A DNA stretch of 64,000 nucleotides, taken from NCBI GenBank assembly GCA_963748215.1, contig CAVVHS010000008.1:64001-128000 (forward strand). The letters are read 5' to 3'. Below, piece after piece: positions 3,618 to 20,147 of the stretch. The translations under genes and the position numbers were made by a program. This DNA comes from an uncultured Gammaproteobacteria bacterium (GTDB lineage: Bacteria; Pseudomonadota; Gammaproteobacteria; UBA9214). The stretch's first letter is position 1. Each line of letters starts with the position of its first letter. The notes under the pieces are model-generated. The model made no database searches. It was not told the DNA's origin and worked only from the letters and a program-made list of their open reading frames with translations.

Positions 3618-3865
3618 TTGTGTTGTACCTGTATGAACACCCTGGTTATGCCTGTCTGTGTCAGCCGGTTTGCGCAAGGCGGGCCGGGGCTGACTGCGCG
3701 ACAGCTGCCGCCTGCGCACGGACCTTTCCGCTGGCGGTTCGGAAAACCACTGGTCGGAAAAACGCCTCCGCCTATCTTATCGGGGATGACAACACGGCGC
3801 GAGGTTTGTACAAACAGCAGAAACCCGCGGCAGCGCGCCGCGGAACACTCGACACGACAGGCACC

Positions 3866-4372: not shown

Positions 4373-5349
4373 TGCGGGTCCACACGCCATGCCGTGGCTT
4401 CAGCCTGGTCGAATTACTGGTTGCACTGGCCATCACACTGGTCGTGCTGGCCGGCATCGGCCGGGTGTTCATCGCAACCGGGCACAGTTACCGTCTGCAG
4501 GACAGCCTTGCGCGCCTGCAGGAAAACGCCCGCTACGCGCTCGAGACGCTGGCCACCGACCTGCGTCGCACCGGCTACCGGGGCGGCATTGCCGACCTGC
4601 ACCGCATCGAGGACCACACCCCGGCCGGGCTCGCACGGGGTCGGCGCGTGGCGCGCGATGACGGCAGCTGCAGCGGCCCGGACTGGGCATTGATGCTGGA
4701 ATACCGCGTATTCGGCAAGGACGACACGCGACGCAACTATCCTTGCCTGGCAGCGGATAAAACGCCCCGTGGCGACGTCCTGGTGGTGCGTTACATGGCA
4801 CCCTGGCAGGTGGGCGGAACAACGACACCGGTCTTTCAGCCGCGGCAGTATTACCTGCGCAGTTCGGTGTTCGCCGGCCGGCTGTTTCGAGGCGCCGACC
4901 AGGCAAGCCACGCCGTCACCGGCACGCCGGTGCGCGTCGCCGAGCTGGTCGCGCGCGCCTATTACATCCACACCGCCCCCGGCACCGGCTGTGCGCAACC
5001 AGGCACCGTTCCCGCCCTGTACCGCACGTCGCTCGCCAACGGCCGGCTGGTCGCCGGCGAGATCGCCCGTGGCGTGGAACAGTTGCAGGTGCAGTACGGT
5101 ATCGATACCAATGCCGACGGGTCGGTCGACCGCTATATCGATGCCCCGCCCGCCGGCGATACGCCCGCCTGGCGGGCGGTCGTCGCAGTGCGGTTCTGGA
5201 TCCTGCTGCGCAGCGACTGCACGGAAACGGGCCACACCGACACCGGCAGCTACCGTCTGGGCAATATCAGCCTGATACCGGCCGATGGCTACCGGCGCCA
5301 GCTGTACTCGCACACGGTCTACCTGCGCAACCCGGGTCTGCCGCCATGA
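4372..5349 (+). CDS. pilW: Type IV pilus minor pilin PilW
   Basis: G/FSLVELLVA, LQENARYA, GVEQLQVQYGID, C-terminal LRN; start overlaps the pilV stop. Confidence 0.9.
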   Translation: MRVHTPCRGFSLVELLVALAITLVVLAGIGRVFIATGHSYRLQDSLARLQENARYALETLATDLRRTGYRGGIADLHRIEDHTPAGLARGRRVARDDGSCSGPDWALMLEYRVFGKDDTRRNYPCLAADKTPRGDVLVVRYMAPWQVGGTTTPVFQPRQYYLRSSVFAGRLFRGADQASHAVTGTPVRVAELVARAYYIHTAPGTGCAQPGTVPALYRTSLANGRLVAGEIARGVEQLQVQYGIDTNADGSVDRYIDAPPAGDTPAWRAVVAVRFWILLRSDCTETGHTDTGSYRLGNISLIPADGYRRQLYSHTVYLRNPGLPP

Positions 5350-6059
5350 CACCCGACGGCACCCGTGGCGTGCACTCCGCTGCATGGCAGTCCGGCACGG
5401 CCCTGCCCGTCGCGCTGGTCTTCCTGCTGGTATCCACGCTGCTCGGTACGTTCGGCATGCACCAGTCACGGCTGGAAAATCGCATGGCCGGCAACGCGCA
5501 GTACCAGGTTCTGGCCCTGCACAATGTGGAGTACGTACTGGCTGCGGCCGAGGCGGATATCGAGGCGCAGCAGGGTAATCCATTCCACCCTGACCGCCCC
5601 GGCGATCACTATTATCCGCAGGATACGGTCGACTTCGATCGCGGCACCCCGGGCATGCAACAACCCGCCAACCGGGTATGGACCTTCGGCAGTGCGCAGG
5701 TGTCGCTGCCCGATATCGACGGTGACGGCAGTGACACTGACGGCGACGGCATCGCCGATGACGGGACCGGCCAGTACATCATCCAGGATGCCGGCATGGA
5801 ACTGACCCTGAGCGGGCAGATATCGCGTTCCGCCGCCCCGACTGCCTTGACCGGCAGCAGGATACAGGCCTTCGTGGTGACGGCGCGCAGCCGGACATCG
5901 GGTGGTGCACAGCGCATCGTGCAGAGCGTCTATCTCCGCACACCGTTGCCGGGCACACCGGGCGGCGCGACGGTCACGGTGCCACGTGCAACAGGAGCGG
6001 GTGCTGCCCTGCCGAATCCCGTCTACGGCCGGCGCAGCTGGATTGACCTGCGCGAGTGA
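5346..6059 (+). CDS. pilX: Type IV pilus minor pilin PilX
   Basis: G/TALPVALVFLL without Glu5, ENRMAGN, VQSVY, GRRSWIDL; position in the operon. Confidence 0.85.
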   Translation: MTPDGTRGVHSAAWQSGTALPVALVFLLVSTLLGTFGMHQSRLENRMAGNAQYQVLALHNVEYVLAAAEADIEAQQGNPFHPDRPGDHYYPQDTVDFDRGTPGMQQPANRVWTFGSAQVSLPDIDGDGSDTDGDGIADDGTGQYIIQDAGMELTLSGQISRSAAPTALTGSRIQAFVVTARSRTSGGAQRIVQSVYLRTPLPGTPGGATVTVPRATGAGAALPNPVYGRRSWIDLRE

Positions 6060-6502
6060 CACTGCAGCGGCCCGTTCTCCTGCCACCTCCCTGCCGGCGC
6101 GGCTTCAGCCTGCCTGAACTGCTGGCGGTAATTGCCATCCTCGGCATACTCGTCGCTATCGGCTACCCTGCCTACACCGAGCAACTCAGGCAGTCGCGGC
6201 GCGCGGAGGGTATGGGCGCACTGCTGGAGCTGGCGGCGCGCCTGGAAGGCTTCTACGCCGACCACGGCACTTACCTGGGCGCGACACTGGGCCACGGGGC
6301 CAGTGCTGTCTTTCCGACCGTCACCGTCAACGGCTATTACACGCTGGGTATCGATGCGCAGTCGGCGACCGGATACACCGTCAGCGCCACACCGACGCGA
6401 CGCACCGGGCAGCACCGCGACCGGTGCGGCAGTTTCATGCTGACCTCGCTGGGCGTGCGCTCGGTGGGCAATGCCGCCTATTACAGTCGCTGCTGGCGCT
6501 AG
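6056..6502 (+). CDS. pilE: Type IV pilus minor pilin PilE
   Basis: G/FSLPELLAV, YPAY, SRRAEG, C-terminal DRCG...CW disulfide loop. Confidence 0.9.
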   Translation: MTLQRPVLLPPPCRRGFSLPELLAVIAILGILVAIGYPAYTEQLRQSRRAEGMGALLELAARLEGFYADHGTYLGATLGHGASAVFPTVTVNGYYTLGIDAQSATGYTVSATPTRRTGQHRDRCGSFMLTSLGVRSVGNAAYYSRCWR

Positions 6503-6657
6503 TTCCTTGATCAAGCAGATATGAAATGGCCACGTAATGACACGTGAAAAACACCCCGGGGAAAACACCGATCAAGTTCACGAGATTCCTTCGCGCACCG
6601 CATCCGCTCCTACCGGTGCTGGCGCCTTGTGTGCCTGAAGGATATTGGATTTTATTT

Positions 6658-6948
6658 TTCCGTGTTCTTCCGTGGATTCCGTGGCCGTTATTTTTGTAGG
6701 GTGCACTCCGTGCACCGTTCGCCGGTGCGTAAAACGCACCCTACGCCCGGGCATTATGTTTCCGTGTTCTTCCGTGGATTCCGTGGCCGTTATTTTTTTG
6801 TAGGGTACACGCCGCGCACCGCTGCCGATGCGTAAACGCACCCCACGTCCGGGCATTATTTTCCGTGTAATTCCGTGTGCTTCCGTGGCCATTATTTTTT
6901 GCAGGGTGCACTCCGTGCACCGCTATCGGCGCGTAAAACGCACCCTAC
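6658..6948. repeat. Three tandem ~101-bp composite REP-like units
   Basis: Units start at 6658, 6760 and 6861. Each has TTCCGTG three times followed by a GTAGGGTGC...GCACCCTAC double palindrome. Confidence 0.85.
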
Positions 6949-7892
6949 TACTCCTGGTCGCGTTTCAGCTCCGACGGCAGCGAGAAGGTCACCGGCTCCT
7001 TTCTGCCCGCGGTCTCCTCGACCGTCACGGCGCCCCAGGCACGCAGCTGTTCCACAACACCGGCGACGAGCGCCTCCGGCGCGGAAGCCCCGGCGGTTAC
7101 GCCGACGGACTGCTTGCCGGCCAGCCACGCCGGCTGTATCTGGGATGCCTCGTCGATGAGGTAGGCCGGTATCCCGCTGTTCTCGCCCAGTTCGCGCAGC
7201 CGGTTGGAATTCGAGCTGTTCGGCGAACCGACCACCAGCATCACGTCGCAGCGCGCGGCCAGGTTCTTCACCGCATCCTGGCGGTTCTGGGTGGCGTAGC
7301 AGATGTCGTCCTTGCGTGGCCCCTGGATGGCGGGAAAACGCTGCCTGAGCGCATCGATCACGCGCTCGGTATCGTCGACCGACAGCGTAGTCTGGGTCAC
7401 GAAGGCCAGATCGTCCGGGTTCCGTACCGATAGCAGCCGCACGTCTTCCGGCGTCTCGACCAGGTACATCGCGCCACCGTTGCCGGTGACATACTGCCCC
7501 ATGGTGCCCTCCACCTCCGGGTGGCCCTTGTGGCCAATCAGGATGCATTCGCGCCCGGCCTCGCCGTGGCGGCTGACCTCGAGGTGCACCTTGGTCACCA
7601 GCGGACAGGTCGCATCGAACACGCGCAGCCCGCGCTGGCGGCCTTCCTCGTGCACCGTCCGCGCCACGCCGTGCGCGCTGTAGATCACGGTGCCGCCATC
7701 CGGTACCTCGTCGAGCTCGTCGACAAATACCGTGCCGCGGGCGCGCAAGCCCTCGACCACATGGCGATTGTGCACCACCTCGTGGCGTACATAGATCGGT
7801 GCGCCGAACAGTTCCAGCGCACGCTCGACGATCTCGATGGCGCGATCGACACCGGCACAGAAGCCGCGCGGATTGGCAAGCAGGATTTTCAT
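6948..7892 (-). CDS. ispH: 4-hydroxy-3-methylbut-2-enyl diphosphate reductase
   Basis: [41 protein letters not shown]. Confidence 0.97.
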
Positions 7893-8483
7893 GAGTTGTC
7901 CGGTTTGACTAACGAGTGAATTATAGGCCGTAGCGGACCGCGACTGCCAGGAAACAACCATACAGGGCAAAGGGATGCCGTGTTTTGCTCTCAACATTGT
8001 TGGCCAGTACAAAACCAGCCCGGCCTGTCCTTGTTCACCGCATCCTGTATGGCCACCTGGACTTGGCATGACCGGGTGATCCAATTCCGTCAATGAATAC
8101 AGGCCGGGTTCGGTCAGCAACAGACATATAGCGGACATCAACCACCAGCTCTGATAATGCTGAGCTGTACTTCCGGGTACGGTCATAAGTTGCGGTTCCC
8201 CGTACACAGAAATTTCTGCTGGTGCGGGGTATCTGATCGGCGACTACCAGCCAGAATCGATGGACCGCCGAACAACTAACGAATGGCCGGCTCTTGTGAT
8301 TGTTGACGTTCGGGTTCCAGTTGTAACGGGGGATCGACGAACCTGAGGTATCGATCGCGCGGTAAAACTGCCTTGGGGCGTACCACAGTAAGATGGATTA
8401 CGCAGTTTCCGAACGGTACATACACTCGTGCACTTTTTTCCTGTTTTCCAACGCAACTTCCCTTTTACCTCTGATGCAAACGC

Positions 8484-8508
8484 AAACCCCCTGTCGAGCA
8501 GGGGGTTC
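8484..8508 (-). terminator. Probable terminator hairpin downstream of the Gly/Tyr-rich gene
   Basis: AACCCCCTG-TCGAG-CAGGGGGTT stem-loop. Confidence 0.55.
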
Positions 8509-8574
8509 ATGAAGCTGAAGAACTATCCCGATCAAGCGAACGCCTATGTTGTCAGCAGGCGTCCGCAAATACTG

Positions 8575-9006
8575 TTACCTATAGCCACCCGGATTGCCGC
8601 CGTAACCACCCGGACCGCCGCCATAGCCGGGACCACCGCCATAGCCGGGACCGCCGCCATAGCCGGGACCGCCGCCATAGCCGGGACCGCCGCCATAGCC
8701 GGGACCGCCGCCATAGCCGGGACCGCCGCCATAGCCGGGACCCCCGCCATAGCCGGGACCGCCACCATAGCCGGGACCGCCACCATAGCCGGGACCACCG
8801 CCATAGCCGGGACCGCCACCATAGCCGGGACCACCACCATAGCCGGAACCACCACGATAATCATCATAACGATCATTATCATTATTACCGCCCATCCACT
8901 TGGATGGATTCATCATATTGCCCATATCCACCGCACTGGCCTGGTGCGCAAGCAGTAAGCTGGCCGCTAAAATAATTACCCTGAATTTGATGTCCTTGTT
9001 TTGCAC
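8575..9006 (-). CDS. Secreted Gly/Tyr/Pro repeat protein, sulfur-globule-protein-like
   Basis: GGAGGA RBS before GTG 9006; signal peptide ending ASA; MMNPSKWMGG then (GYGGGP)x13. Confidence 0.75.
   Translation of the reverse strand: MQNKDIKFRVIILAASLLLAHQASAVDMGNMMNPSKWMGGNNDNDRYDDYRGGSGYGGGPGYGGGPGYGGGPGYGGGPGYGGGPGYGGGPGYGGGPGYGGGPGYGGGPGYGGGPGYGGGPGYGGGPGYGGGPGGYGGNPGGYR
8611..8844. repeat. 13 x 18-bp coding tandem repeat (GYGGGP)
   Basis: GGGACCGCCGCCATAGCC unit with synonymous variation and no spacers. Confidence 0.95.
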
Positions 9007-9489
9007 TGTATCTTCCTCCGCATAAATGTAATTGCCACTGGACAAACGATGCTACCGGTCTTGCTCACGACTAATCGCAATCGTCAGCAAGGTCGCGAGC
9101 GCGATGCTCAACCAATGAGTTTTATGTGCGCTTCCATTCGAAACACTCTCCGTTCAAGCAGTCCTCGAGCGAGGATTACATGATAATTATCATCCATTCC
9201 AATCGGGTTGTCTGTTCGTTGGCGTACATATTGCCTGTTTGGTCCAAACATGGCTGCGGGTGTGTGCGCTGGAAAATGCCGCATTATGTAGCCGCCGCCT
9301 AACATTATCTTCCACGCGACTGTTTAGCGATTACTTATACAGATTCAGCCTCGAGGTCGCATTCCGGCCAATACACAATATGCAGCACTACATTTATAAT
9401 GATGACAAAAATCATTAAATCCTGACAACGCCTCGTGGCATGGATTACTGTGTATTCATTAATTAGCGGCGTTTCAAGCAGATTGGCCT

Positions 9490-11010
9490 ATGAATGCTAA
9501 AGATGCCGGTGTAGGCATACAGTTCCCCAGCACCCAAGACGGCCATCGAAGCTCCATGGCTGCCAGTAAGGCAGTATTGGCCGCCTCCGTACTAGAGCTC
9601 GACCCGGGACTAGCCGAAGCCATTCAGACAGAACCCAACTGGCATAATCACTACGGACGCTATCTCGTAGACATGGTTCGGCTCTCAGCACGCAGCGACG
9701 CCGCGGCCGTTTCCATTGCGCACAATGGCCTGACTTCAGTTCACGGATCATTCCAGTTCGTCCGCGATGGCGATCAAATGACAGTGCGAGAAGCAATGCA
9801 TCGATTCCGCGAACCGCGTATTTACACCGGCACCATCCATGGAGAGGGGGAGCGACAGAAGCACTTGCAAATACCCTACCGGGATGGATTGCTAAGCGGC
9901 GATGCCCTGAAAAACCAGGTCGATGTCTGGGCACAGAACGGCATCATGGAACCCTCTGCTGCAGAGGCCCTGCACTGCCTCAGCAACCGGAGTGATTGGC
10001 TAGACCTTCGCGATATGCACTTTGTTTTATTGGGTGCTGCGGCCGAGATTGGGCCCATCGAGATGCTTAGCCGGCTGGGCGCCAATATCGTTGCTGTAGA
10101 TAAAGACCAACCGGCTATTTGGAAGAAACTCCTGCGCATCGCTCGGGAGGAGGCTGGATTCATGCAATTTCCCTTGCGTGAACCGTTGCCTGAAGATGCG
10201 GATGACGAGAGCCTGGCCGCTGTCGCCGGTAGCGACCTGTTGACCGCGGCACCCGAGATCCGAACCTGGCTTGCGGCCCTGGATCGTGCCTTCTGCATCG
10301 GTGGCTACGCTTATATGCACGGCCAGAATCACCTGCGTGTGGAGGTGGCGATGGATGCCATCATGGATGATCTGACGTCGCAGCGCAGGGACATCGCCCT
10401 GGCATACCTCCTGACACCAACTGATGTGTACTTGATACCTGATGAGGCCGCACAGGCGGCACGCGAGGACTTTGCACAGGCAGGCATGAGTCGCCTGTGG
10501 CGCGATCCACTGAGGGTACTGACCAAGGGTCGATTGTATGCACCAAATGCCGAATATGACATTAGCGACTTGCATGGCAACCACTATGGGCTATACGACG
10601 GAGTCATACCTCTCCAGGGGCCTAACTATGCATTGGCAAAGCGTATTCAGACATGGCGTGCTCTAGCGGCCCGCACCGCAGGACACCGAGTGTCTGCCAA
10701 CGTCGCCCCTTCCACCACCACTGCCTCGGTGTTAACACGATGGGATTTTGCAGCCGCCTACGCGGGTGCTGGATACTACGGCGTAGAGACTTTCGAGCCT
10801 GCAGCCACTAATGCAATTATGGCGGCGCTGCTTATACATGACTTGCGCAATGACGATTGCCTGGCCAATCCGGCCGTGGCGTTGCCCCACCCTCTGGCGC
10901 TGTTCATGAACGAGGCAGTGCACGGTGGCGTATGGAGGATTGGACTTCAATTACGTTCGGTAATCGAAATCGCGGCTATTAGAGGACTTATTTCTCACCC
11001 GCGCAGGTAA
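9490..11010 (+). CDS. Hypothetical protein, 506 aa, with a Rossmann-like segment
   Basis: Long uninterrupted ORF. FVLLGAAAEIGP...GANIVAVD resembles a beta-alpha-beta nucleotide-binding fold; QGPNYALAKR. Confidence 0.8.
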   Translation: MNAKDAGVGIQFPSTQDGHRSSMAASKAVLAASVLELDPGLAEAIQTEPNWHNHYGRYLVDMVRLSARSDAAAVSIAHNGLTSVHGSFQFVRDGDQMTVREAMHRFREPRIYTGTIHGEGERQKHLQIPYRDGLLSGDALKNQVDVWAQNGIMEPSAAEALHCLSNRSDWLDLRDMHFVLLGAAAEIGPIEMLSRLGANIVAVDKDQPAIWKKLLRIAREEAGFMQFPLREPLPEDADDESLAAVAGSDLLTAAPEIRTWLAALDRAFCIGGYAYMHGQNHLRVEVAMDAIMDDLTSQRRDIALAYLLTPTDVYLIPDEAAQAAREDFAQAGMSRLWRDPLRVLTKGRLYAPNAEYDISDLHGNHYGLYDGVIPLQGPNYALAKRIQTWRALAARTAGHRVSANVAPSTTTASVLTRWDFAAAYAGAGYYGVETFEPAATNAIMAALLIHDLRNDDCLANPAVALPHPLALFMNEAVHGGVWRIGLQLRSVIEIAAIRGLISHPRR

Positions 11011-11105
11011 CTATGCTGATAGCTGTACGGAGGTCCGAAAAGGTCGGTTCCCGGTCACGCGTCTAATTTACTCGGTTATTCCCCCTGGAATTTCCGAGAA
11101 TGGCC

Positions 11106-11324
11106 GATAGTGTTGAAAAACTCCGTTTCCTGGCAGGTAGAGAAAATATTAGCCTGTTAAAGGTGTCACGACTCTGAACACATAGGGAGACAGTAGTTGT
11201 GGCACAATCCCTTTGCAAACAGCCTGTGGAGAACCGTGACATTCAACTGATTTTGAATATCTGATCGAAATCGATTTGAGAAGTAATCCAGACTTACAAA
11301 CTTTTCGAGTTTTTCAACACAATC
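11106..11324. mobile_element. 219-bp non-autonomous MITE with IS1182-like ends
   Basis: 18-bp IRs GATAGTGTTGAAAAACTC / GAGTTTTTCAACACAATC (1 mismatch); GGCC duplicated at 11102-11105 and 11325-11328; no ORF. Confidence 0.8.
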
Positions 11325-11352
11325 GGCCAACTCCTGACCTACAGCGCGATGG

Positions 11353-11376
11353 AAAACGGCCCCGAAGGGCCGTCTT
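11353..11376 (-). terminator. Intrinsic terminator of the VPLPA-CTERM gene
   Basis: ACGGCCC-CGAA-GGGCCGT stem preceded by an A-run. Confidence 0.7.
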
Positions 11377-11385
11377 ATAGAACTG

Positions 11386-11979
11386 TCAAGATACTTGCTT
11401 ACGTCTTGCTATCCCAACCAGTCCCATTAGGCCGGAGCCGAAGAGCCACACTGTAGCAGGCAGCGGCACTACGGAGGTGGTGACCGTCAGCGTCCAGGGT
11501 TGTGCAGGGAAAACCGTGCCGGCCGAAAGCTGGAAGTCCCAGATAGCCCCAAATGTAGTTTGGCTTAACGGCCCGGTTTCCGGCCCAAAGCTGTCAAAAA
11601 ATGACGCCGAGATGCTAGCACCCGAAGTGACGTTATTGAAGTTGTCATCAAACAGATTGGCCACATCATTGTATAAGTCAGTGGTCATGTTCTGACCAAT
11701 GTTGAAATCATCAAACGGCGCCGCAAATGACAGAACGATGCTGTCGACGATCAGATTGGCCACCTGTGTGAATCTGACTCGATCAGTTTCAGCAGGCGGC
11801 GTTGCGTTGATCGAGCCTAGGATCTGGTTGACACCTGCCATAAGGTTCACATTGGTGCTGCCAATAGCGTCCAGGTCACCGTTTACAGATTCGTCGTAGA
11901 TTGTTACCGCGAATGCAGAGCCCACCGACAAGACAAGTGCGGCACCTGTGATAGCACATGCCAAGGTTTTATAGTTCAT
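11386..11979 (-). CDS. VPLPA-CTERM (PEP-CTERM-like) exosortase-sorted surface protein
   Basis: Signal peptide ending AFA; C-terminal VPLPATVWLFGSGLMGLVGIARRK. Confidence 0.9.
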   Translation of the reverse strand: MNYKTLACAITGAALVLSVGSAFAVTIYDESVNGDLDAIGSTNVNLMAGVNQILGSINATPPAETDRVRFTQVANLIVDSIVLSFAAPFDDFNIGQNMTTDLYNDVANLFDDNFNNVTSGASISASFFDSFGPETGPLSQTTFGAIWDFQLSAGTVFPAQPWTLTVTTSVVPLPATVWLFGSGLMGLVGIARRKQVS

Positions 11980-12160
11980 TAATGATCTCTACGTGAAATT
12001 AGTTGCGGCACTGGTTTCCCAAATGCCGTGACTCTTATTCATGATGAATATCTGCAGGACTTACAGTTGTGATAATTTCGACTAATCCTGGGTTTTCTGT
12101 ATGACCGATGTCACAAATACAAACAAACCCATCCGTCAGAAGCATTAACGATAATCAAAA

Positions 12161-12209
12161 TGACCGTACCCCCGTAATCCGACCCTGCTCGGGTTCCGGG
12201 GTACGGTCA
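12161..12209. repeat. 12-bp inverted repeat TGACCGTACCCC / GGGGTACGGTCA
   Basis: Perfect IR with a 25-bp spacer; an 11-bp partial copy lies at 8175-8185. Confidence 0.6.
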
Positions 12210-12246
12210 CGCCCGCCGGCTAGACTTGGTTACTTCAACACCAATC

Positions 12247-12271
12247 AAAAGAAGCGGCCCGAAGGCCGCTC
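12247..12271 (-). terminator. Intrinsic terminator of the DUF4382 gene
   Basis: AGCGGCC-CGAA-GGCCGCT stem preceded by an A-rich run. Confidence 0.7.
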
Positions 12272-12293
12272 ATGTTGGTTGTGAAAACAGCAC

Positions 12294-13226
12294 TTAAGGT
12301 ATAATGGGCGGGAAATCGTAAACTGTATTGGCACCGGCAATAACAGTCACTGTGGCCTCGCTAAGGAAGTTGACAGTCGCACTGTCATCATCAACTACCG
12401 GATCATCTGCCATGGCATCACAGGTAAAGGCAATGTGGTAGTCTCCCTCGGATAGAAATGCGACCTTATAGTTGTATACACCGTCATCAGGAACCAGTGC
12501 CGAGGTAATTGGATCCGGGCCACCACCCGTCCCGTCTTCGTCGTCAGGCGCTCCAGCTGTGCCATCATGGAACACGTAGACAGCACCGCCGCAATTACCA
12601 CTGGCAAAGTAACCTGGATCTATGCTTCCTGATAATGTCCCAACTTCTGTGTTATCCACGATCCGAAGTGTTGGACGCAGTATATAGTCACTGCTGCCGA
12701 CCGGGTCATGCACTGACTTACGCAGATCAAAATCAATTGTGAACTCGGCCATGCCGCCAGCGGGCACAACAAAACCTCGGTTCAGCTTAAGCCCGCTTTC
12801 ATCACCACTCGGAATACGTAGCTCGTACTCCTGGCCAGCGACTACGATGTAGGAGTCACGCACGTTCTGTTTCGCGTTGACCATGAGTCTTAACCAGTTG
12901 TACTGGCCTGAGGGTAAAGTTTCATTATCGAGAATCAAGTCGGAAGTCCCGCCTGTCAACGTCATCAGGTCAATCTGACAGGATGCCGGGTCCAGGGCAC
13001 AACGGTCAGTAAAATCGAATGTGATGCGCGCCCCGCTGGCTGGCTGCAACTCCACACCATAGAACTCGACGACGACTTCGTCAGCACTGTCAACAGGGGC
13101 ATCTGTAAGTCCTAGGCTTAGCGAGCCTGTTGATGCGCCACCACCACCGCCGCCACATGCCGCAAGCAAGAACGTCAATCCGGCGGCAGACATAAGGTTG
13201 ATAAAGCTGGATCCTGCATTTCTCAT
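12294..13226 (-). CDS. DUF4382-domain lipoprotein
   Basis: Lipobox LAAC plus Gly linker; LTDAP, PSGDESGLKL, IDFDLRKS, YILRPTLR. Confidence 0.88.
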   Translation of the reverse strand: MRNAGSSFINLMSAAGLTFLLAACGGGGGGASTGSLSLGLTDAPVDSADEVVVEFYGVELQPASGARITFDFTDRCALDPASCQIDLMTLTGGTSDLILDNETLPSGQYNWLRLMVNAKQNVRDSYIVVAGQEYELRIPSGDESGLKLNRGFVVPAGGMAEFTIDFDLRKSVHDPVGSSDYILRPTLRIVDNTEVGTLSGSIDPGYFASGNCGGAVYVFHDGTAGAPDDEDGTGGGPDPITSALVPDDGVYNYKVAFLSEGDYHIAFTCDAMADDPVVDDDSATVNFLSEATVTVIAGANTVYDFPPIIP

Positions 13227-13416
13227 AAACTTTTACTCTTTCCTGGTGGTTAACTCATCAACTATCCTAGAATCAGACCAGCTTACATAGTGTGAGCTTG
13301 GCAGGATAAATGTGTGGTTATCACTTCAGACCACAGGCAGACATCCGTTGATTTCACATCGATTGTTACTTAAATACTATATGACTCGAAGCAGAGACTG
13401 CTGAAAACCGATTCGA

Positions 13417-13734
13417 TCAACAGTGTCCTTTTTTCCTGTGGCCGGGCGGGCAATGGTAGTAATAAGGCTGGCTTCTCCGAGGTGGAGCATACTCGTGATG
13501 AACTCTCTGCGGTGGATATCGATGAGTGTGCCCGTCGGTAGTAACTGCCGCTCCAACGGCTCCACCGAGCGCACCACCTAGAATGGCACCATCACGACCA
13601 CCGATCTCGTTACCAATGGCTGCGCCGGCGGCACCACCGATGCCGCCGCCGATTGCCGCGTCCAATGTTGAATTATCTGCGTTCACTTCAACAGCTATAA
13701 GCATGACTGCTAGAGCACAATATTTTATCTTCAT
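13417..13734 (-). CDS. Small secreted glycine-zipper protein
   Basis: Signal peptide; GGGIGGAAGAAIG...GGALGGAVG; C-terminal CPPGHRKKGHC. Confidence 0.85.
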   Translation of the reverse strand: MKIKYCALAVMLIAVEVNADNSTLDAAIGGGIGGAAGAAIGNEIGGRDGAILGGALGGAVGAAVTTDGHTHRYPPQRVHHEYAPPRRSQPYYYHCPPGHRKKGHC

Positions 13735-14356
13735 GGGATTAAACGTCCTGGCTTGGGTTAATTATAATTTGCATCATCTTCAATTGTTCCTGGTAATAGG
13801 GTGACCTTGATCACAGTCCAGTTCAGGTATTCGATACTGCCACATAGCTAACTTGTTACCTGTCTGTAAAAGTCTTGATTACAATTGGTCGGCCATTACC
13901 AGCATGAAGTGAGGAAACGGGTATCTTTTCATGATGCACAAGCTCATATCGACCACGTTTCGTCAAATATTACAGCATAAGGCAATTCCTATACCAATGA
14001 CTGAGATGCCATTAGAAAACACTTAGTTACACGGATCTGGTTTGATCTGGGCGAAATACTCACCCCGTAAAAAATGCCGTATGCGTCGTTGAACAAAGAC
14101 ACAAATATACATTCGATAGCTAACATGCTGATGCGGAGGAAATTAATCTGTACCTACTGGACGACATGTCGAGGTAAAGACCTATTGTCAGTAGCTATCA
14201 GCAGTGGTGGAGATAAGCGCGCCTACTGTTGAGGTAGTTCCTATTCAGATAATCGTCATGTATTGCATAACTATACAGCGCCATCAGAACTGAATGAGCA
14301 GGTCCGTTTACGACATGTACCGCGACATTCAGCCCGAAACGACGGACTTCTGATTT

Positions 14357-14405
14357 GGGTCGACTCCCGCCGATTAGCGAAAGTTTATATAAGCGTCTCA
14401 TGTAG
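14357..14405 (+). repeat. 49-bp dispersed site, copy 1
   Basis: GGGTCGACTCCCGCCGATTAGCGAAAGTTTATATAAGCGTCTCATGTAG; aligns without gaps to the copies at 17941 and 19017. Confidence 0.85.
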
Positions 14406-14561
14406 GACGGGAACCGGCCAGCTCTCGCCCTTCCCGGGCGAGATGCGAACGGTGAAAATGCAGCAATATTTGCCGTTCCCGTCATACAGCCTTTAGTTCA
14501 GAGAATGAGCTGTGATTGTCATTCATCCTTGCGCAATGCCGACATGAGACGACATGGCTCC

Positions 14562-15962
14562 TTAATTAATCAATGCCTTAGCTATCACGTCAACCGCCTT
14601 TATAAGCTCGATCCGAAAGCGGTCTGCTCCGCCCGAACCACAGAACCGTCCCAGATCAGAACAAGCAGATTCTGGCTGCACAATTTGCTGCAACCATTCA
14701 ATCCCTATTTCTTCCTTTGAGTGCCATGCATTGCTATTTGTATAAGTAAGAAAGGCATCATATAACGTTGGTTCTCTGAAGGTACCTTTAACTCGCGCAC
14801 GTACTGCAAGTTCGAAGCAATAGCCGCCCTCTTGATTGCATTGCCTAAATTGAATCCTCTGGAGAATCAACTCGAGTGCGCCATCTTGTAGTGAATATTC
14901 TTCATCACTTGCATGATTACTTAACTCGACTGCTAAAGTATTCCCAGCTTCCCTCGCTCTTTCTGCAACGCGTCTACCCAATAGATTGGGGACGTCGATA
15001 CTGTGCAATTCATTAACCAGTTGCTCTATGCAAGGACCCCAAGCCTGCTCCGCAGCGGCCACCTCAGAGGTCTCGAGTGCAGCAGCAAACGGCCAGTAAG
15101 CGAAAGCCAGCAATATCAGCCCGCCGCATCCAGGGCCATAGCAATTGCCACCATAGCGTGAGTCACCCCCCCCGAAGTAACGCTCATGCGCTTTCGCCTT
15201 CCAGTCCGGATAATCAAGGTTCTTGCCGTTTCCGGTCACAATCCTTACGGATTGCAGAAGGGATAATTCATGCTTAGATAAGGAACTTCCGTATCGGGAT
15301 ACCAGAATCTTCTCGAGTCTTCCAAATTCAGGGAAGTTCTGTATAGCAATATCAGTTGCAGCCTCAGTTTCGTCATTCAGTAATACTTCACTACTGCATG
15401 CCTTGTACTGGATATCAGCATGTCGTGTGGTACAAGAGATATGTATAGAACCTGCATAAATGATCGGTTTTTCGGGAGGAACATTAATCCAATAGCTGGG
15501 GCGGCGATTGGATCCATCTGAATCTCGCCATGTTCCTTCTGTGCCATACGGGGTATCAATGAGTATACGATAGCTCCCTGGTTCTAAAAGCAGATAGCGC
15601 CATCCCGCTTTTTGTGCCTCCTCTGACGGCGCATTATTCTTCACCACAGGTATAAACTTGGGCGGCAGAGTGGTAATTCTCACCGGTATCAGTCTAATAA
15701 ACGTACGATCCCAACCAGTCTCCCAGGCCATTATTGGTTTACCGTCATCGGTACCCGAGATACGAAACAAAACGATCGACTTAGCATTGAGCCGAACTGC
15801 AGCTGCTTCACTGGGTGTCAGTTCTCGCACCGGAATCATTGTGCAACTTGGCAATACCACCTGCACAAACAGAATGAATATCATATATATCTTGAGCGGG
15901 CGGTAGCTACCTTGTCGTACCCTGATCGTCCAGCACAATGGGGTTTTGTATTTGGAGTTCAC
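14562..15962 (-). CDS. Hypothetical Cys-containing protein, probable lipoprotein (true start may be ATG 15884)
   Basis: 466-codon ORF in AT-rich DNA; hydrophobic stretch followed by LPSC; no family recognised. Confidence 0.7.
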   Translation of the reverse strand: MNSKYKTPLCWTIRVRQGSYRPLKIYMIFILFVQVVLPSCTMIPVRELTPSEAAAVRLNAKSIVLFRISGTDDGKPIMAWETGWDRTFIRLIPVRITTLPPKFIPVVKNNAPSEEAQKAGWRYLLLEPGSYRILIDTPYGTEGTWRDSDGSNRRPSYWINVPPEKPIIYAGSIHISCTTRHADIQYKACSSEVLLNDETEAATDIAIQNFPEFGRLEKILVSRYGSSLSKHELSLLQSVRIVTGNGKNLDYPDWKAKAHERYFGGGDSRYGGNCYGPGCGGLILLAFAYWPFAAALETSEVAAAEQAWGPCIEQLVNELHSIDVPNLLGRRVAERAREAGNTLAVELSNHASDEEYSLQDGALELILQRIQFRQCNQEGGYCFELAVRARVKGTFREPTLYDAFLTYTNSNAWHSKEEIGIEWLQQIVQPESACSDLGRFCGSGGADRFRIELIKAVDVIAKALIN

Positions 15963-16264
15963 TCCGGAATCTCGTATTAGCTCAGACGTGCGCTATTGTC
16001 CCGAAAATCGTGATTCAAAATAAATCATGGCCATCATCACCATCAGCATCGACCCGGGTCAATACCAATCCAAGGCCTGAAACAGAAAGATCAGTGTAGT
16101 ATCATCAGCTTCGCGAAGAAACTCGTTATTTGGGAATTTCTGACGGTAAAAACAGGTACTTTCGTCTTGAGTAGGAAGCTGCCTACCAGAGCCCGAGCCG
16201 GCAACGGCGTCTTTCAGTGCATTTTCACCGTATAGTCCCTATTTCTGGACGGCAACTTCGGGTC

Positions 16265-17941
16265 CAGACTGTGTGAAAACTCGCTTCATTACTCATTTTG
16301 AAGCGATGCCACAGATCATAGCGCATTTTTCCATATGACCCACTGAGAGGGCGTTCCAGGTGCGAGCATTGCCGGCCTTGCGTGTAAACACTTTCACTGC
16401 CGAGAGATGCTGTGGTACTGCGAGAGCGGTAAAAACGGCCCTGATCAGGCCATCTGCATCTTCAGCATCAGTCCTTCAACACCGAATATACTCATGGCGC
16501 GTTTCAGATTGTAAGCCAGCACATGCAGGCTCATTTCCGTGCTGACATGTTTCAGCGTTTTCATCTGAAAGTGGGTGTGTCCCACCCAGGCTTTCAGCGT
16601 TCCAAAAGGATGCTCTACTGTTTGCCGACGCACCCGCATACGCTCTGGATGTTTATCAAGTCGGGCCTGGAGTCTCTCGATGACCACCTCGTGCTCCCAA
16701 CGAGTCACACGCCGCTCCTTGCCTGGCGTGCACCTGGCTTTGATCGCGCACTGCCCACACACCGAAGTCCAATAACGATAGATCTTCAGTCCATCCTGGA
16801 TTGAGCTCATATGGTTAACTAATCGCTCGCCCGCTGGACACTCGTACTCGTCGTCTTCAGGCTTATAGACAAAGTCACGTTTGTCGAAATAGCCTTTGGT
16901 CTGTTTGTTGGATGTCTGAGGCTTTGGTAAATAGGTCGTAAGCCCGGCTTCGTCGCAGGCTCGTATCTCCTCGTTGCTGAAGTAGCCACGGTCAGCTACC
17001 ACTTCGAGTTCATCGGCACCTATCGCTTCTCGCGCCTGCTCGGCCATGGGTGAGAGCTGGCTCCGGTCATGACCGACGTTCGTTACTTCGTGGGTGACAA
17101 TGATATGGTGCTTCGTATCGACCGCCGTCTGGACGTTGTAGCCGACTATCCCGGAACCACGGCCACTCGTCGCCATCGAGCGAGCATCCGGATCAGTCAG
17201 GGAAATCTGCTGATCAGGTACAGCCAGCATCTCAACTTCGAGCGCCTTTAGCCGTGCTATCTCTCCCTTCAAGATCTCAATCTTCTCCTTCAGTCGCTGC
17301 GACTTGTTTTCCGCCAACTCCGATTCTTGGCGATCAACGCTCTCCATCTCAGAGAAATACCGCGCAATGCTTTCATCAATCTGCTCGAGACGACGCTTTA
17401 ACTTCGCCTTCGTGAAATTCCGGTCACGATTGTTCACAGCCTTGAACTTGCTGCCATCGATAGCGACAAACGCATCAGTAAACAGCTCCAGTTTGCGACA
17501 GATCAGCACAAACTCCCGGCAGACCTTCTGGATGGCTTTGCTGTTATCTTTCCGAAAATCGGCAATGGTTTTGAAAGCAGGGGCTAATCGACCGGTTAAC
17601 CACATCAGCTCAACATTGCGCTGCGCCTCCCGCTCCAGACGACGGCTGGACTGAACGCGGTTCAGGTAACCGTAGATATAGATCTTGAGCAGAGTGGCAG
17701 GATGGTAGGGAGATCGCCCGGTGTCTTCAGGTACAGTTCTGAAACCGAGTGCGCCCAAATCCAGTTCATCAACAAACACATCAATGACACGAACCGGGCT
17801 GCTTTCGGCAATGTAATCATCAAGCCGCTCCGGGAATAATGTGGCTTGTGTCCTGCATTCTCCTTCAATAAAACCTGTCATTTCACGGCTTTCCTGAATG
17901 AAAGCCGTATTATATCGATTCCAGAGTTTTCACACAGTCTG
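16265..17941 (-). mobile_element. IS1182-family insertion sequence, 1677 bp
   Basis: Perfect 18-bp IRs CAGACTGTGTGAAAACTC / GAGTTTTCACACAGTCTG; GGTC target duplication at 16261-16264 and 17942-17945. Confidence 0.93.
16445..17881 (-). CDS. IS1182-family DDE transposase
   Basis: SSRRLE, FKTIADFRK, IDGSK, TDPDAR, GYNVQ, ADRGY, VEHPFG. Confidence 0.95.
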   Translation of the reverse strand: MTGFIEGECRTQATLFPERLDDYIAESSPVRVIDVFVDELDLGALGFRTVPEDTGRSPYHPATLLKIYIYGYLNRVQSSRRLEREAQRNVELMWLTGRLAPAFKTIADFRKDNSKAIQKVCREFVLICRKLELFTDAFVAIDGSKFKAVNNRDRNFTKAKLKRRLEQIDESIARYFSEMESVDRQESELAENKSQRLKEKIEILKGEIARLKALEVEMLAVPDQQISLTDPDARSMATSGRGSGIVGYNVQTAVDTKHHIIVTHEVTNVGHDRSQLSPMAEQAREAIGADELEVVADRGYFSNEEIRACDEAGLTTYLPKPQTSNKQTKGYFDKRDFVYKPEDDEYECPAGERLVNHMSSIQDGLKIYRYWTSVCGQCAIKARCTPGKERRVTRWEHEVVIERLQARLDKHPERMRVRRQTVEHPFGTLKAWVGHTHFQMKTLKHVSTEMSLHVLAYNLKRAMSIFGVEGLMLKMQMA

Positions 17942-17989
17942 GGTCGGCTCCCGTCGATTGGCGAGTTCTTATATAAGGATTTCATGTAG
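17941..17989 (+). repeat. 49-bp dispersed site, copy 2 (IS1182 insertion target)
   Basis: GGGTCGGCTCCCGTCGATTGGCGAGTTCTTATATAAGGATTTCATGTAG. Confidence 0.85.
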
Positions 17990-18370
17990 TACCGGGTTCG
18001 GACAACAGTTGCCGTTCCTTTAACGCAGTAAACTCGCTGATGCGGGTTATCTAATCGGCGACTATCGGCCAACTCCTGACCTACACGGACGACCAGCGAA
18101 GGGCAACTGTGCCGCAGAAGTTGTCGTTCCCGCCCAGTTAATGGTAATTCAGTAACCAGCCACAGACTATCCTTCCCTGGTGCAGTAATCCTGCTCCGAC
18201 TCCCTGTTAATGCAAGGAGGGATTCTTTGCGCCACTGCATACCGCCTGGATTCTCTCTTGTAGTTCCGTGTGTTTTTCACTGCTGTTTTCATTTCTCGCC
18301 TCGTTATGGCATTTTACCGCTTTAACCCGGTGTACGGATTTGGCAGACCACTTCAGTTCAAGGTGACATC

Positions 18371-18778
18371 ATGAGATATATACATACCGGTTCAGTGGCA
18401 CGTACCACCCTCATAACACTGGCCGCCATTGCGGCCTTTTTAGTGGTTGCAATCACGTTGTTGCCCAAAGGGTTTAGCAGCGACACCTCCGTTATCGGAC
18501 AGGGTTCCCATGTCGTCGTGCTTGCTCACAACAAGGAATCGATGTATAGCCTGAACCTCATGGACTCGCTGAATAAAGTTCGTTCTGAATATTCCGATCG
18601 AATTGAATTTCGAGTAGTTGATATGAACACACCGCAAGGACAAGCGTTTCTCCAGCAACAACAAGTCCGATCCGTCTCCTTACTATTTTTCGCGCCAGAC
18701 GGCACGCGGCAACGCGTCGTCAGCAACATCGATGACGAAACCGAATTGCGTGCGAGCCTGAATTCAATTTTCAATTAG
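18371..18778 (+). CDS. Membrane-anchored hypothetical protein, possibly a Cys-less thioredoxin-like fold
   Basis: AAGGTG RBS; N-terminal TM segment; IEFRVVDM...LLFFAPDG pattern. Confidence 0.7.
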   Translation: MRYIHTGSVARTTLITLAAIAAFLVVAITLLPKGFSSDTSVIGQGSHVVVLAHNKESMYSLNLMDSLNKVRSEYSDRIEFRVVDMNTPQGQAFLQQQQVRSVSLLFFAPDGTRQRVVSNIDDETELRASLNSIFN

Positions 18779-19016
18779 TCGTAAATACGACTTTCCGTCA
18801 ATAGCAGCAAGCAAAACCGGGGTCAGAACACAGTTTTCGCGTATAGCAACTTACGGGGAACCGGGTTGGGTCGATGGTTGCAGTCTAGAATCCGACCCGG
18901 GAACGGCAACTTCCAGTACTTTCCTGCCATCCCCAGGAATATCGGGAAAGACCGACCAGGGTCGTTCTTACTCGTTAAGCTCCTGATTATATAGGCAGTG
19001 GCTAAAGGTCGTAGTT

Positions 19017-19065
19017 GGGTCGACTCCTGCCGGTAAGCGAAGTCTTATATAAGGGTTTTATGCAG
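19017..19065 (+). repeat. 49-bp dispersed site, copy 3
   Basis: GGGTCGACTCCTGCCGGTAAGCGAAGTCTTATATAAGGGTTTTATGCAG. Confidence 0.85.
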
Positions 19066-19142
19066 TACCGTGATTGGTGCAAAAACGGGCCGGATATATT
19101 TTGCATACGGGCATCCTGCAGCATGGCGCCGCACCCCTCCGC

Positions 19143-20147
19143 CTACGAACACGACAACATCCGGTGCAGTACGGCCATTTGCACCAGCATCCGGTTACGA
19201 GCCTCTGCGATAACCACACTGCGCTGCCCGTCGATCACGTCATCCGTAACGGTGACGCCGCGGCGCGCCGGCAGGCAGTGCATAAAACGGCAGTCGCCGG
19301 CGGCATTCCCGAACCAGGTTTCGTCCACACACCATTTACGCAGATCGAGCTTGAACTCTTCTTCTGTGCGTTTGTTACCGTAGTGGCGCGCGGATGCCCA
19401 GGAACTTGCATAGATAATCCGGCTGCCCTGCATCGCATGGGATCGATCATCTGTCTCCGTCACCGATCCACCACCGATTGCAGCCGCACTGCGTGCCTTG
19501 TCCATGATGGCGTCCGGCAACCCGAATCCCTCCGGTCTCAATACCGTGACATCCATTCCTCGCAAGGCAGCCATATGCAGCGTTGCCGCGGGTACCGACA
19601 ATGGCAATGCTTGCGGGTGCCAGGTCCAGGCCAGCACGAACTTGCCGTTATTGGCAGGCACGCCCAGATCGTCCATGGTTTTCCAGTCGGCAAGACTCTG
19701 GCACGGGTGATTGATTGCCGACTCCATGTTGATGTACGGCACTTCGACCAGAGAGGTCAATTCACGGAATTCGCGATCAGCAAGGTCATCATCGAGATTT
19801 TCTCTTCGCGCAAACGCGCGAATGCCTATGGCATCACTGTAAGATGCAATCACAGGAACCGCCTCCCGGATATGCTCGGCCGCAGCGCCGTCCATAACGA
19901 TACCCGACCGCGATTCTATGCCATGAATCGACATGTTCGGTGAAACGACAAAGGTGCCACCCCCCATTCGGGCCATCGCCGCCTGAAACGAAATCAGCGT
20001 CCGCAACGAGGGGCTCAGGAAAAGCAGCGACAGCACCTTGCCCTCCAGCGACCGCGGTTCCGGATTTTCATGAAGCCTGCCAGCCAGCGTCAGCAGTTCG
20101 TTTATTTCAGCAACACTGAAATCCGCCAGGTCATTAAAGCATTCCAT
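19143..20147 (-). CDS. argF: N-acetyl/N-succinyl-ornithine carbamoyltransferase (ArgF' type)
   Basis: SLRT, extended MDG..EH loop, HPCQ, WHPQALP, HCLP. Confidence 0.88.
   Translation of the reverse strand: MECFNDLADFSVAEINELLTLAGRLHENPEPRSLEGKVLSLLFLSPSLRTLISFQAAMARMGGGTFVVSPNMSIHGIESRSGIVMDGAAAEHIREAVPVIASYSDAIGIRAFARRENLDDDLADREFRELTSLVEVPYINMESAINHPCQSLADWKTMDDLGVPANNGKFVLAWTWHPQALPLSVPAATLHMAALRGMDVTVLRPEGFGLPDAIMDKARSAAAIGGGSVTETDDRSHAMQGSRIIYASSWASARHYGNKRTEEEFKLDLRKWCVDETWFGNAAGDCRFMHCLPARRGVTVTDDVIDGQRSVVIAEARNRMLVQMAVLHRMLSCS

Follow-up and report, generated by a model that had tools for sequence, protein, structure and literature searches.

Integrons and integrase-less clusters of attC sites (CALINs) consist of arrays in which short sites of one orientation separate unrelated, mostly small accessory genes, the content of these arrays varies between close relatives, the enzyme is a tyrosine recombinase, and arrays are also found without a nearby integrase. 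Short double-stranded sites also bound recombinase-less mobile gene modules on Acinetobacter plasmids, where the pdif sites (28 bp, with the 11-6-11 architecture of two 11-bp arms, inner ATAA/TTAT, around a 6-bp centre that is shared with dif) alternate in orientation and are served by the XerCD recombinases of the host. In the TnpI/IRS system, a composite site made of a core and repeated accessory motifs lies just upstream of the recombinase gene, and the accessory DNA of tandem genomic islands at tRNA genes is divided up by direct repeats whose sequence resembles a T-arm. The pdif modules are named in a review (PMC9771954), and TnpI/IRS of Tn4430 is described as a resolution system (PMC2847244). 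The present analysis concerns a family of ~100-nt repeats in a 64,000-nt stretch (the window) of the genome of an uncultured gammaproteobacterium (GTDB UBA9214; contig CAVVHS010000008.1, positions 64,001 to 128,000), where the repeats separate gene modules in a manner reminiscent of these systems. The interpretation favoured here, to which we assign about an even chance, is that the repeats are double-stranded recombination sites (att- or res-like) of a family of small tyrosine recombinases, represented in this genome (G000; other genomes of the genus are numbered G0xx and extracted loci Lxxx) by orphan arrays.

The repeat arrays share with integrons and CALINs the uniform site orientation, the variable accessory content, a tyrosine recombinase as the likely enzyme and the occurrence of arrays without an integrase alongside. 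Unlike integrons, the sites have neither a folded hairpin nor R and L boxes and are not associated with intI, the candidate enzyme consists of a catalytic domain only (211 aa) whereas IntI carries an extra domain, the recombinase gene is a unit within the array instead of a fixed platform, and the modules can hold several genes on either strand. The resemblance to pdif modules lies in the double-stranded sites and the recombinase-less modules, but the sites here are ~100 bp long and occur as direct repeats, with a core that by reading is not dif-like; XerC/XerD-like genes are present in G000, and nothing ties them to the sites. As in TnpI/IRS, AAYGTCCG-type repeats and then a GGGTCG motif stand upstream of the recombinase gene, but TnpI is larger and belongs to one transposon with one site per element, whereas the present motif occurs in many copies, arrayed in the chromosome around cargo genes. 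Here, unlike in tandem tRNA-gene islands, the arrays have no tRNA gene beside them, and no tRNA 3' end is reproduced in the repeat. FimB/FimE-type recombinases are similar in size (~200 aa), and one of the candidate genes (in G029) lies between inverted sites; in contrast, the NCBIfam match is far below its cut-off and the sites are mainly direct repeats kilobases apart. Arrays of recombination sites, served in trans by a tyrosine recombinase, would make this a cassette system based on site-specific recombination.

The window contains the 3' end of one array, with two modules and four site copies (one decayed), and the repeat-derived features are all on the same strand:

14338..14482, + strand: site copy 1, with the 5' arm, the 49-nt core from 14357 and a long 3' module ending TTGCCGTTCCCG (cmsearch 76 bits, E = 4e-22)
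16247..16264, + strand: 5' arm of site copy 2 (GGACGGCAACTTCGGGTC), separated from its own core by an insertion sequence (IS)
17941..18018, + strand: site copy 2, core and 3' module (cmsearch 56.2 bits, model positions 22-85)
18959..19010, + strand: decayed tandem half-unit (GGGTCGTTCTTACTCGTTAAGC...TTATATAGG) immediately 5' of copy 3 (nhmmer E = 0.0025), the fourth copy in the window
18999..19088, + strand: site copy 3 (cmsearch 64 bits), the final site of the array, with its 3' end at the right border of the accessory island (~19088)
8165..8205, + strand: core-less remnant near the left border of the island, in which the 5' arm is fused straight to the 3' module (CTGTACTTCCG joined to GGTACGGTCATAAGTTGCGGTTCC)

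The three intact cores begin at 14357, 17941 and 19017 and align without gaps, with 34 of 49 columns invariant and a pairwise identity of 38-39 of 49. An initial annotation, made from the window alone, had already described these three same-strand copies, and both the alignment and shuffled controls bear it out: the 5' 24 nt of the core (≤3 mismatches) match exactly three places in the 64-kb window, and none of 100 dinucleotide shuffles contained any match to this query, so that none is expected by chance. Additional repeats of the 3' module occur downstream of copy 2 (~18060-18135), and the layout of the tandem half-unit in front of copy 3 is found at other site copies. Public metagenome contigs span copy 1 and both IS junctions, copy 2 included, and none of the public metagenome records listed covers all of copy 3.

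Alignment of 46 copies from eight genomes places the conserved unit at about -15 to +88 relative to GGGTCG (~103 nt), with the consensus CTGAAcGTCcG-N4-GGGTCGnCTCCCGcCgTTTAGCGAAATCTTATATAAGcgtcTcgTGTAGGaCCGGGaTCGGcCaG-N-GcCgTTC. It is the primary sequence that is conserved, including a palindromic CTTATATAAG box; truncated copies are frequent, and in many copies a tandem half-unit precedes the site or the 3' module is duplicated. G000 holds 19 copies at E<1e-3 in a profile search and 22 by a sequence-only covariance model; 16 of the 19 fall in five arrays with a spacing of 1-5 kb, each array has a single orientation and all of them sit in stretches of lowered GC. Of 36 other species genomes in the genus, 34 contain the family, again mostly in same-strand arrays; no copy occurs in 24 genomes that belong to other families within the class. 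Array orientation does not correlate with GC skew, nor consistently with gene strand, and the orientation of sites to genes is reversed between the C7 array and the C8 16-22k and C9 arrays. The profile scan suggested by the initial annotation has thus returned a dispersed family in same-orientation arrays, and its proposal that the sites delimit variable gene modules also stands, since unrelated modules are separated by sites and their contents vary between relatives. Its description of these as single-gene modules holds in the window but not generally, because intervals in other arrays contain one to five genes, including zwf-gnd-like genes. One such interval (L006, G000:C8, 7295-9908) holds 6-phosphogluconate-dehydrogenase-like and glucose-6-phosphate dehydrogenase genes between two sites at a GC content of 0.56-0.58; the module is absent from G030 at the same locus, and central metabolism is here represented among the island cargo.

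A candidate enzyme was recognized in G029, where a 212-aa tyrosine recombinase gene lies directly behind a diverged site copy. Proteins of this kind are ~200-212 aa long, lack a core-binding domain and align to XerD over the catalytic domain only (1a0p residues 124-283); in NCBIfam they score far below the cut-offs of every named recombinase family (23 versus 222 bits for 'tyrosine-type DNA invertase'). The genus contains five full-length copies, of which that in G015 has one in-frame TAG, and many fragments or pseudogenes (in G014, G031, G013, G033, G016, G015 and G001). Outside the genus, 552 loci were confirmed in species genomes that range from rhizobia to Burkholderiales, methanotrophs and Pseudomonas, with an identity of 62-76% for the 80 of these loci that were kept, and the gene is present on 353 plasmid records, those of E. 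coli and Klebsiella included. At least 8000 metagenome proteins are candidates at E<=1e-10, the best 120 of which are mostly on short contigs. The small recombinase is a solitary gene whose neighbours are always different, and no conserved neighbour gene was found. This family is widespread and apparently undescribed, and no published account of the recombinase-site system was found in the literature searched.

The site and this recombinase gene are linked by position. In three of the five full-length copies in the genus (G029, G015 and G018) the 5' half of the site (model positions 3-52) precedes the gene by ~150-190 nt on its strand, and in G018 the gene is situated inside an array of six same-strand site matches. 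Across the Proteobacteria, GGGTCG occurs on the same strand within the 400 nt upstream in 34 of 77 recombinase loci, 19 of the 34 share one 25-nt bin against a background of 0.15 per 400 nt, and the motif in these distant loci is preceded by the same ...AAYGTCCG-N4 arm as the array sites. In its Burkholderiales versions the motif is palindromic (GGGTCG-N5-CGACCC). Downstream of the recombinase, more copies on its strand are often present, for example at the Paraburkholderia tropica locus L149, at L152 and on Sinorhizobium plasmids. A hidden Markov model (HMM) built from the distant motifs alone identified 11 further copies in those loci, nine of them on the recombinase strand and 0.2-4.8 kb away, and its sole match in the whole of G000 was an array site (C9:215185-215230, E = 7e-4). 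The motif matches in distant loci together with this match in G000 indicate that the link between motif and enzyme extends well beyond the genus. The initial annotation had asked whether sites abut a tyrosine recombinase, and a small one is linked to the motif in related and in distant genomes; it had also envisaged service in trans by a tyrosine recombinase and/or an HUH enzyme; the former is now the best candidate on account of the motif linkage, and the latter half of the proposal has fallen away. In one locus (L051, G029:C2, 15432-16696) the recombinase gene lies between two inverted sites, an arrangement that would invert the gene and not excise it.

Comparison with close relatives reveals how the arrays differ in content, and in several cases the breakpoints of islands or modules lie at a site or within it. 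For the window, this requires the following features:

7964..19088, no strand: low-GC accessory island of ~11 kb (GC 0.47-0.57 versus ~0.65 in the flanks)
14562..15962, - strand: cargo of module 1, a 466-aa open reading frame (ORF) with a VLPSC lipobox-like N-terminus, no Pfam family and a GC content of 0.48
16265..17941, - strand: IS5/IS1182-type insertion sequence; perfect terminal inverted repeats of 19 nt, target duplication GGTC, transposase ORF at 16445-17881
18371..18778, + strand: cargo of module 2, a 135-aa ORF with an N-terminal membrane helix and no Pfam family

The island is bordered by ispH (LYTB domain) on one side and on the other by an accessory gene resembling ornithine carbamoyltransferase (OTCase-like), which adjoins copy 3, and the FKBP gene fkpB. 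Without the IS, copies 1 and 2 are ~1.9 kb apart, and copies 2 and 3 are separated by 1076 bp. Each interval then holds one gene, the two genes being on opposite strands, just as the initial annotation described; its recognition of an IS within the array is likewise substantiated by the terminal inverted repeats, the target duplication and a 478-aa DDE transposase (domains DUF772, DDE_Tnp_1 and DDE_Tnp_1_6). The IS is single-copy in the assembly.

In G030, the nearest relative, whose flanks are 93-96% identical, the island of the window is replaced by 486 bp of other sequence (BLAST and alignment, contig C510), and homology between the two genomes restarts ~71 nt beyond the start of copy 3, where that site ends. 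The C7 array spans 9.2 kb with four sites in G000 and 2.8 kb with two sites in G030, and there the homology restarts 8 nt before the GGGTCG of the shared last site, which by eye is ~70% identical between the two genomes while the flanks are 91% identical. In the C8 16-22k array, tandem site fragments of G030 abut the shared flank at a position where G000 has an additional gene. Two locus pairs share the 5' flank and the core up to +60, and another pair shares sequence from -46 rightwards. Many copies are near the consensus, whereas orthologous copies decay faster than the coding flanks. A SPOR-domain gene and its downstream site stay linked in G000, G008 and G006 in different contexts; there are only a few weak cases of cassettes shared between arrays. 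Arrays were not found to be anchored at conserved chromosomal positions across species: a site beside one core gene is confined to the close relatives G036 and G030, and among 26 orthologous loci of other genomes the sole other match, in G029, is on the opposite side of that gene. The combination of variability, decay and non-conserved positions is the pattern of a mobile DNA family and not of a conserved regulatory site. With respect to the strain comparison of the fkpB-ispH locus that the initial annotation had recommended, the right border coincides with the 3' end of copy 3, while no intact site marks the left.

In three genomes, three different mobile elements have hit the GGGTCGAC motif within a 5-nt stretch. 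In the window, the IS interrupts the GGGTCG of copy 2 at GGGTC^, which splits the core from its 5' arm. In L057 (G017:C36, ~4397-4885) a group II intron fragment of ~490 nt (Rfam RF02003, the D1-D4 model, 109.9 bits) lies within a site at GGGT^C (GGGT^CGAC) in the orientation of the site, and it is absent from an otherwise 97-98% identical locus (L053, G012:C39, 4241/4242). In L049 (G028:C10, ~8560-9990) an IS3-type element with rve and HTH_Tnp_1 ORFs directly follows the GGGTCGAC of a site. This triple insertion could mean that the motif is often melted or nicked, and it is also compatible with chance or with the target preferences of the elements.

The anatomy of the sites, their distribution, the breakpoints and the linkage of motif and gene are observed; the mechanism is inferred. 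If the repeats are recombination sites, the small recombinase would cut and join them, with the crossover expected in or near GGGTCGAC...TTATATAAG. Two direct sites recombining would set free the genes between them on a circle with a single site, and by the reverse reaction the circle could enter any other site with its orientation kept; the recombinase gene and the site preceding it would form a unit of this kind. Since the sites are mainly direct and kilobases apart, excision and integration are expected instead of inversion, and integration that preserves orientation would leave arrays uniform in site direction and mixed in gene direction. The initial annotation noted no recombinase gene in the window, and the cognate small recombinase is in fact missing from all of G000, for which reason its arrays are regarded as orphans; such arrays would be frozen or would depend for any movement on a plasmid or island that delivers the enzyme. 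A more far-reaching proposal, which is offered tentatively and which we consider somewhat improbable, is that the arrays are the stores of an integron-like capture system operating on ~100-bp double-stranded sites, in which a pan-proteobacterial, plasmid-borne enzyme is itself a cassette, arrays of the genus are reshuffled when the enzyme visits and GGGTCGAC is the point of strand exchange, the last of which would explain why introns and IS land there. Should this be true, site-bounded gene cassettes would not be peculiar to integrons, as a second system would exist, based on a far smaller enzyme and on ordinary double-stranded sites. It would then shape the accessory islands of uncultured sediment sulfur oxidisers, and by way of the recombinase family its reach would extend to chromosomes and plasmids in rhizobia, Burkholderiales, enterobacteria and others. 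Site and small recombinase together would be a simple marker for finding mobile cargo, and so minimal a recombinase might itself serve as a tool. For the window alone the finding is more modest: one orphan array of the family.

Several observations weigh against the sites being substrates of this recombinase. The enzyme has no match in G000 at E<=1e-10, the best tblastn match being an XerD-like gene at 28% identity; PF00589 matches in this genome comprise two Xer-like genes, a broken intI and two short fragments, three of them full genes. Many other site-rich genomes of the genus also lack the recombinase, though these are mostly fragmented metagenome-assembled genomes (MAGs). Two of the five full-length recombinase loci in the genus have no site within ~1.5 kb, 43 of the 77 distant loci have no upstream GGGTCG, and the upstream motif could be the gene's own operator or leader and not a substrate. 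Inverted binding arms flanking a spacer of 6-8 bp are not clearly recognizable in the site, and arrays L051 and L056 include opposite-strand copies. Some borders also lack sites: only the core-less remnant stands at the left border of the window island, the C8 298-300k island, with two sites inside, is bounded by a 45-bp tRNA 3'-end repeat, and a two-gene MBL+TPR module in L008 has no sites at its ends. Finally, no site-to-site or circular joint was found among the joints listed from four public runs, for which contigs are a weak test; circular junctions are what the initial annotation had proposed to look for. Contigs of three public DNA runs contain the locus as assembled, and one metatranscriptome yielded scattered fragments at 90-95% identity, none on a site; these runs speak neither for nor against expression or excision.

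Some of the same observations would be accommodated if the sites were scars, that is, the leftover ends of a tiny recombinase-only unit (or a MITE-like derivative) repeatedly inserted into variable islands with subsequent loss of the gene, the modules being merely the DNA between insertions. The genus is rich in fragmentary and pseudogenized copies of the recombinase, truncation and tandem half-units are frequent among the sites, the recombinase with its flanking motifs makes up a ~0.9-kb unit at some distant loci such as L126, and the islands are full of other mobile DNA. Repeated random insertion would not be expected to give the uniform orientation seen in all five G000 arrays or to keep the SPOR-domain gene linked to its downstream site across contexts, and no decayed remnant of the recombinase was detected anywhere in G000; an origin as scars is considered unlikely. 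The primary-sequence conservation and the palindromic CTTATATAAG box are what would also be displayed by a functional element conserved between genes (a promoter, operator, insulator or nucleoid-protein site) that travels with accessory genes, and by eye a gene points away from the 5' side of about two-thirds of the sites. Alternatively the repeats might serve as homology anchors, with modules swapped by homologous recombination between ~100-bp repeats after gene transfer; repeats of 100 bp can sustain such exchange and no dedicated enzyme would be required, which fits G000. An intergenic element of this kind is at odds with the reversal of orientation relative to genes between arrays, the faster decay of orthologous copies compared with their flanks, the lack of conservation of the site at orthologous positions across species, the lack of an Rfam family match and the lack, by eye, of sigma-70-type spacing on either strand, and this pair of explanations appears quite unlikely.

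More specific origins fare worse than the recombination-site interpretation. The 5' arm together with GGGTCGACTCCCGCCG resembles the variable arm, T-arm and acceptor of the tRNA-Leu, tRNA-Ser and tmRNA of G000 (14 of 16 positions identical to the tmRNA), some copies read GGTTCGACTCCC, and one site-bearing island is flanked by a true 45-bp tRNA 3' repeat, all of which would suit att copies derived from a tRNA or tmRNA 3' end and accreted in tandem by a tRNA-targeting integrase. The match is short and lacks one T-loop base, however, no tRNA gene adjoins any array (those of the window are at 1903 and 31633), and a tRNA gene lies within ~6 kb, and not adjacent, at only one of 42 recombinase loci, making this origin very improbable. 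That the repeats are attC sites of CALINs served by the genome's own IntI is barely credible, even though the arrays look like cassette arrays and an intI gene is present in G000 (C2:97400-98338, L001; TIGR02249, 443.7 bits versus a cut-off of 265). This gene is a pseudogene with an in-frame TGA and no attC-like array alongside; no site match at E<=1 occurs within 20 kb of intI in seven genomes (233,730 bases from G000, G002, G007, G021, G028, G029 and G031), and genomes without an intI match (G023, G018 and G017) still hold 10-14 sites. The ends RYYYAAC...GTTRRRY are found in none of the 46 units on either strand, as the initial annotation had maintained, and it is by these tested defining features, the missing boxes, hairpin and association with intI, that integron attC sites and CALINs are ruled out. 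IntI above the cut-off was observed in 18 of 37 genomes of the genus, several with stops.

A number of other identities were considered and set aside. An attC-like outer stem formed by the 5' and 3' arms is rejected, as their complementarity (mean 7.2 of 10) is no better than that of shuffled arms (6.85), although at least 9 of 10 matches occur in 3 of 46 units versus 0 of 46 shuffled ones. No consensus hairpin exists, with RNAalifold returning three pairs and no compensatory change and the folds of single DNA copies being mutually inconsistent, which gives no support to the GC-rich hairpin-like arm of the initial annotation. A structured RNA or riboswitch is rejected on the lack of a consensus fold and of an Rfam match; in the window only two tRNAs reach the gathering score, and the sole match at E<=5 in 14200-19300 is to a snoRNA model below threshold. 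The end of an HUH/IS91 element is disfavoured by the absence of a Zn_Tnp_IS91 match in G000 (PF04986, Y2_Tnp, was not searched there), and IS91-type domains appear in only two of the Pfam-scanned loci, as a fragment in L050 and a Y2_Tnp gene in L116; the suggestion of single-stranded DNA processing by such an enzyme is abandoned, given that there is no conserved structure and no IS91 zinc-binding domain in the genome. A miniature inverted-repeat transposable element (MITE) or other non-autonomous transposon disagrees with arm complementarity at control level and with the uniform orientation of arrays, and the precise presence or absence of a single unit was not found in the G000/G030 comparisons. 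A replication-polar element is discounted since orientation is independent of GC skew, and a promoter because inspection gives no sigma-70, sigma-54 or extracytoplasmic function (ECF) spacing and the orientation to genes is inconsistent. By inspection the core also appears not to be dif-like, another statement of the initial annotation, as the CTTATATAAG half-sites are reversed in order relative to the dif consensus and have no spacer.

Additional repeats and genes were noted around the arrays. The 3' module of the site (TCGGnCAnnnGTTGCCGTTCC) also stands alone, often paired around a CCCGCTGATGCGGG hairpin, and then follows another conserved block (...CTCGTGCGCGGTCGATTTCTAGTAGCAG...), a second island-repeat family that shares this module with the sites; examples are at 18020-18135 of the window and at G000:C8:301500-301700, C8:295600-295700 and C7:345300-345450. 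The OTCase-like gene next to the window array (19143-20147, - strand) is accessory, being present in 8 of 37 genomes of the genus at E<=1e-60 and often at contig ends, and together with the island it splits the fkpB-ispH pair. The island in L007 (G000:C8) is flanked by the 45-bp tRNA 3' direct repeat at 3654-3698 and 12255-12299, measures 8.5 kb, is precisely absent from G030 and contains an IS, an Hcp-PEP-CTERM fusion, TetR, a class II FBP aldolase-Dabb fusion and two sites. In L011 (G000:C5), two 213-aa DUF4124 ORFs (6050-6691 and 10688-11329) that are 97.7% identical and 4.6 kb apart represent a recent segmental duplication in a low-GC island beside a solitary site. A separate high-copy, MITE-like repeat of ~110-130 nt, unrelated to the sites, occurs at ~6650-6950 of the window and also at L012 8566-8693, L009 16742-16943 and L010 2675-2793. 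This repeat has more than 25 copies in each of G036 and G027 and at least 12 in G030. In sediment metagenomes its contig depth sums to 800-2000, and internal indel variants are numerous.

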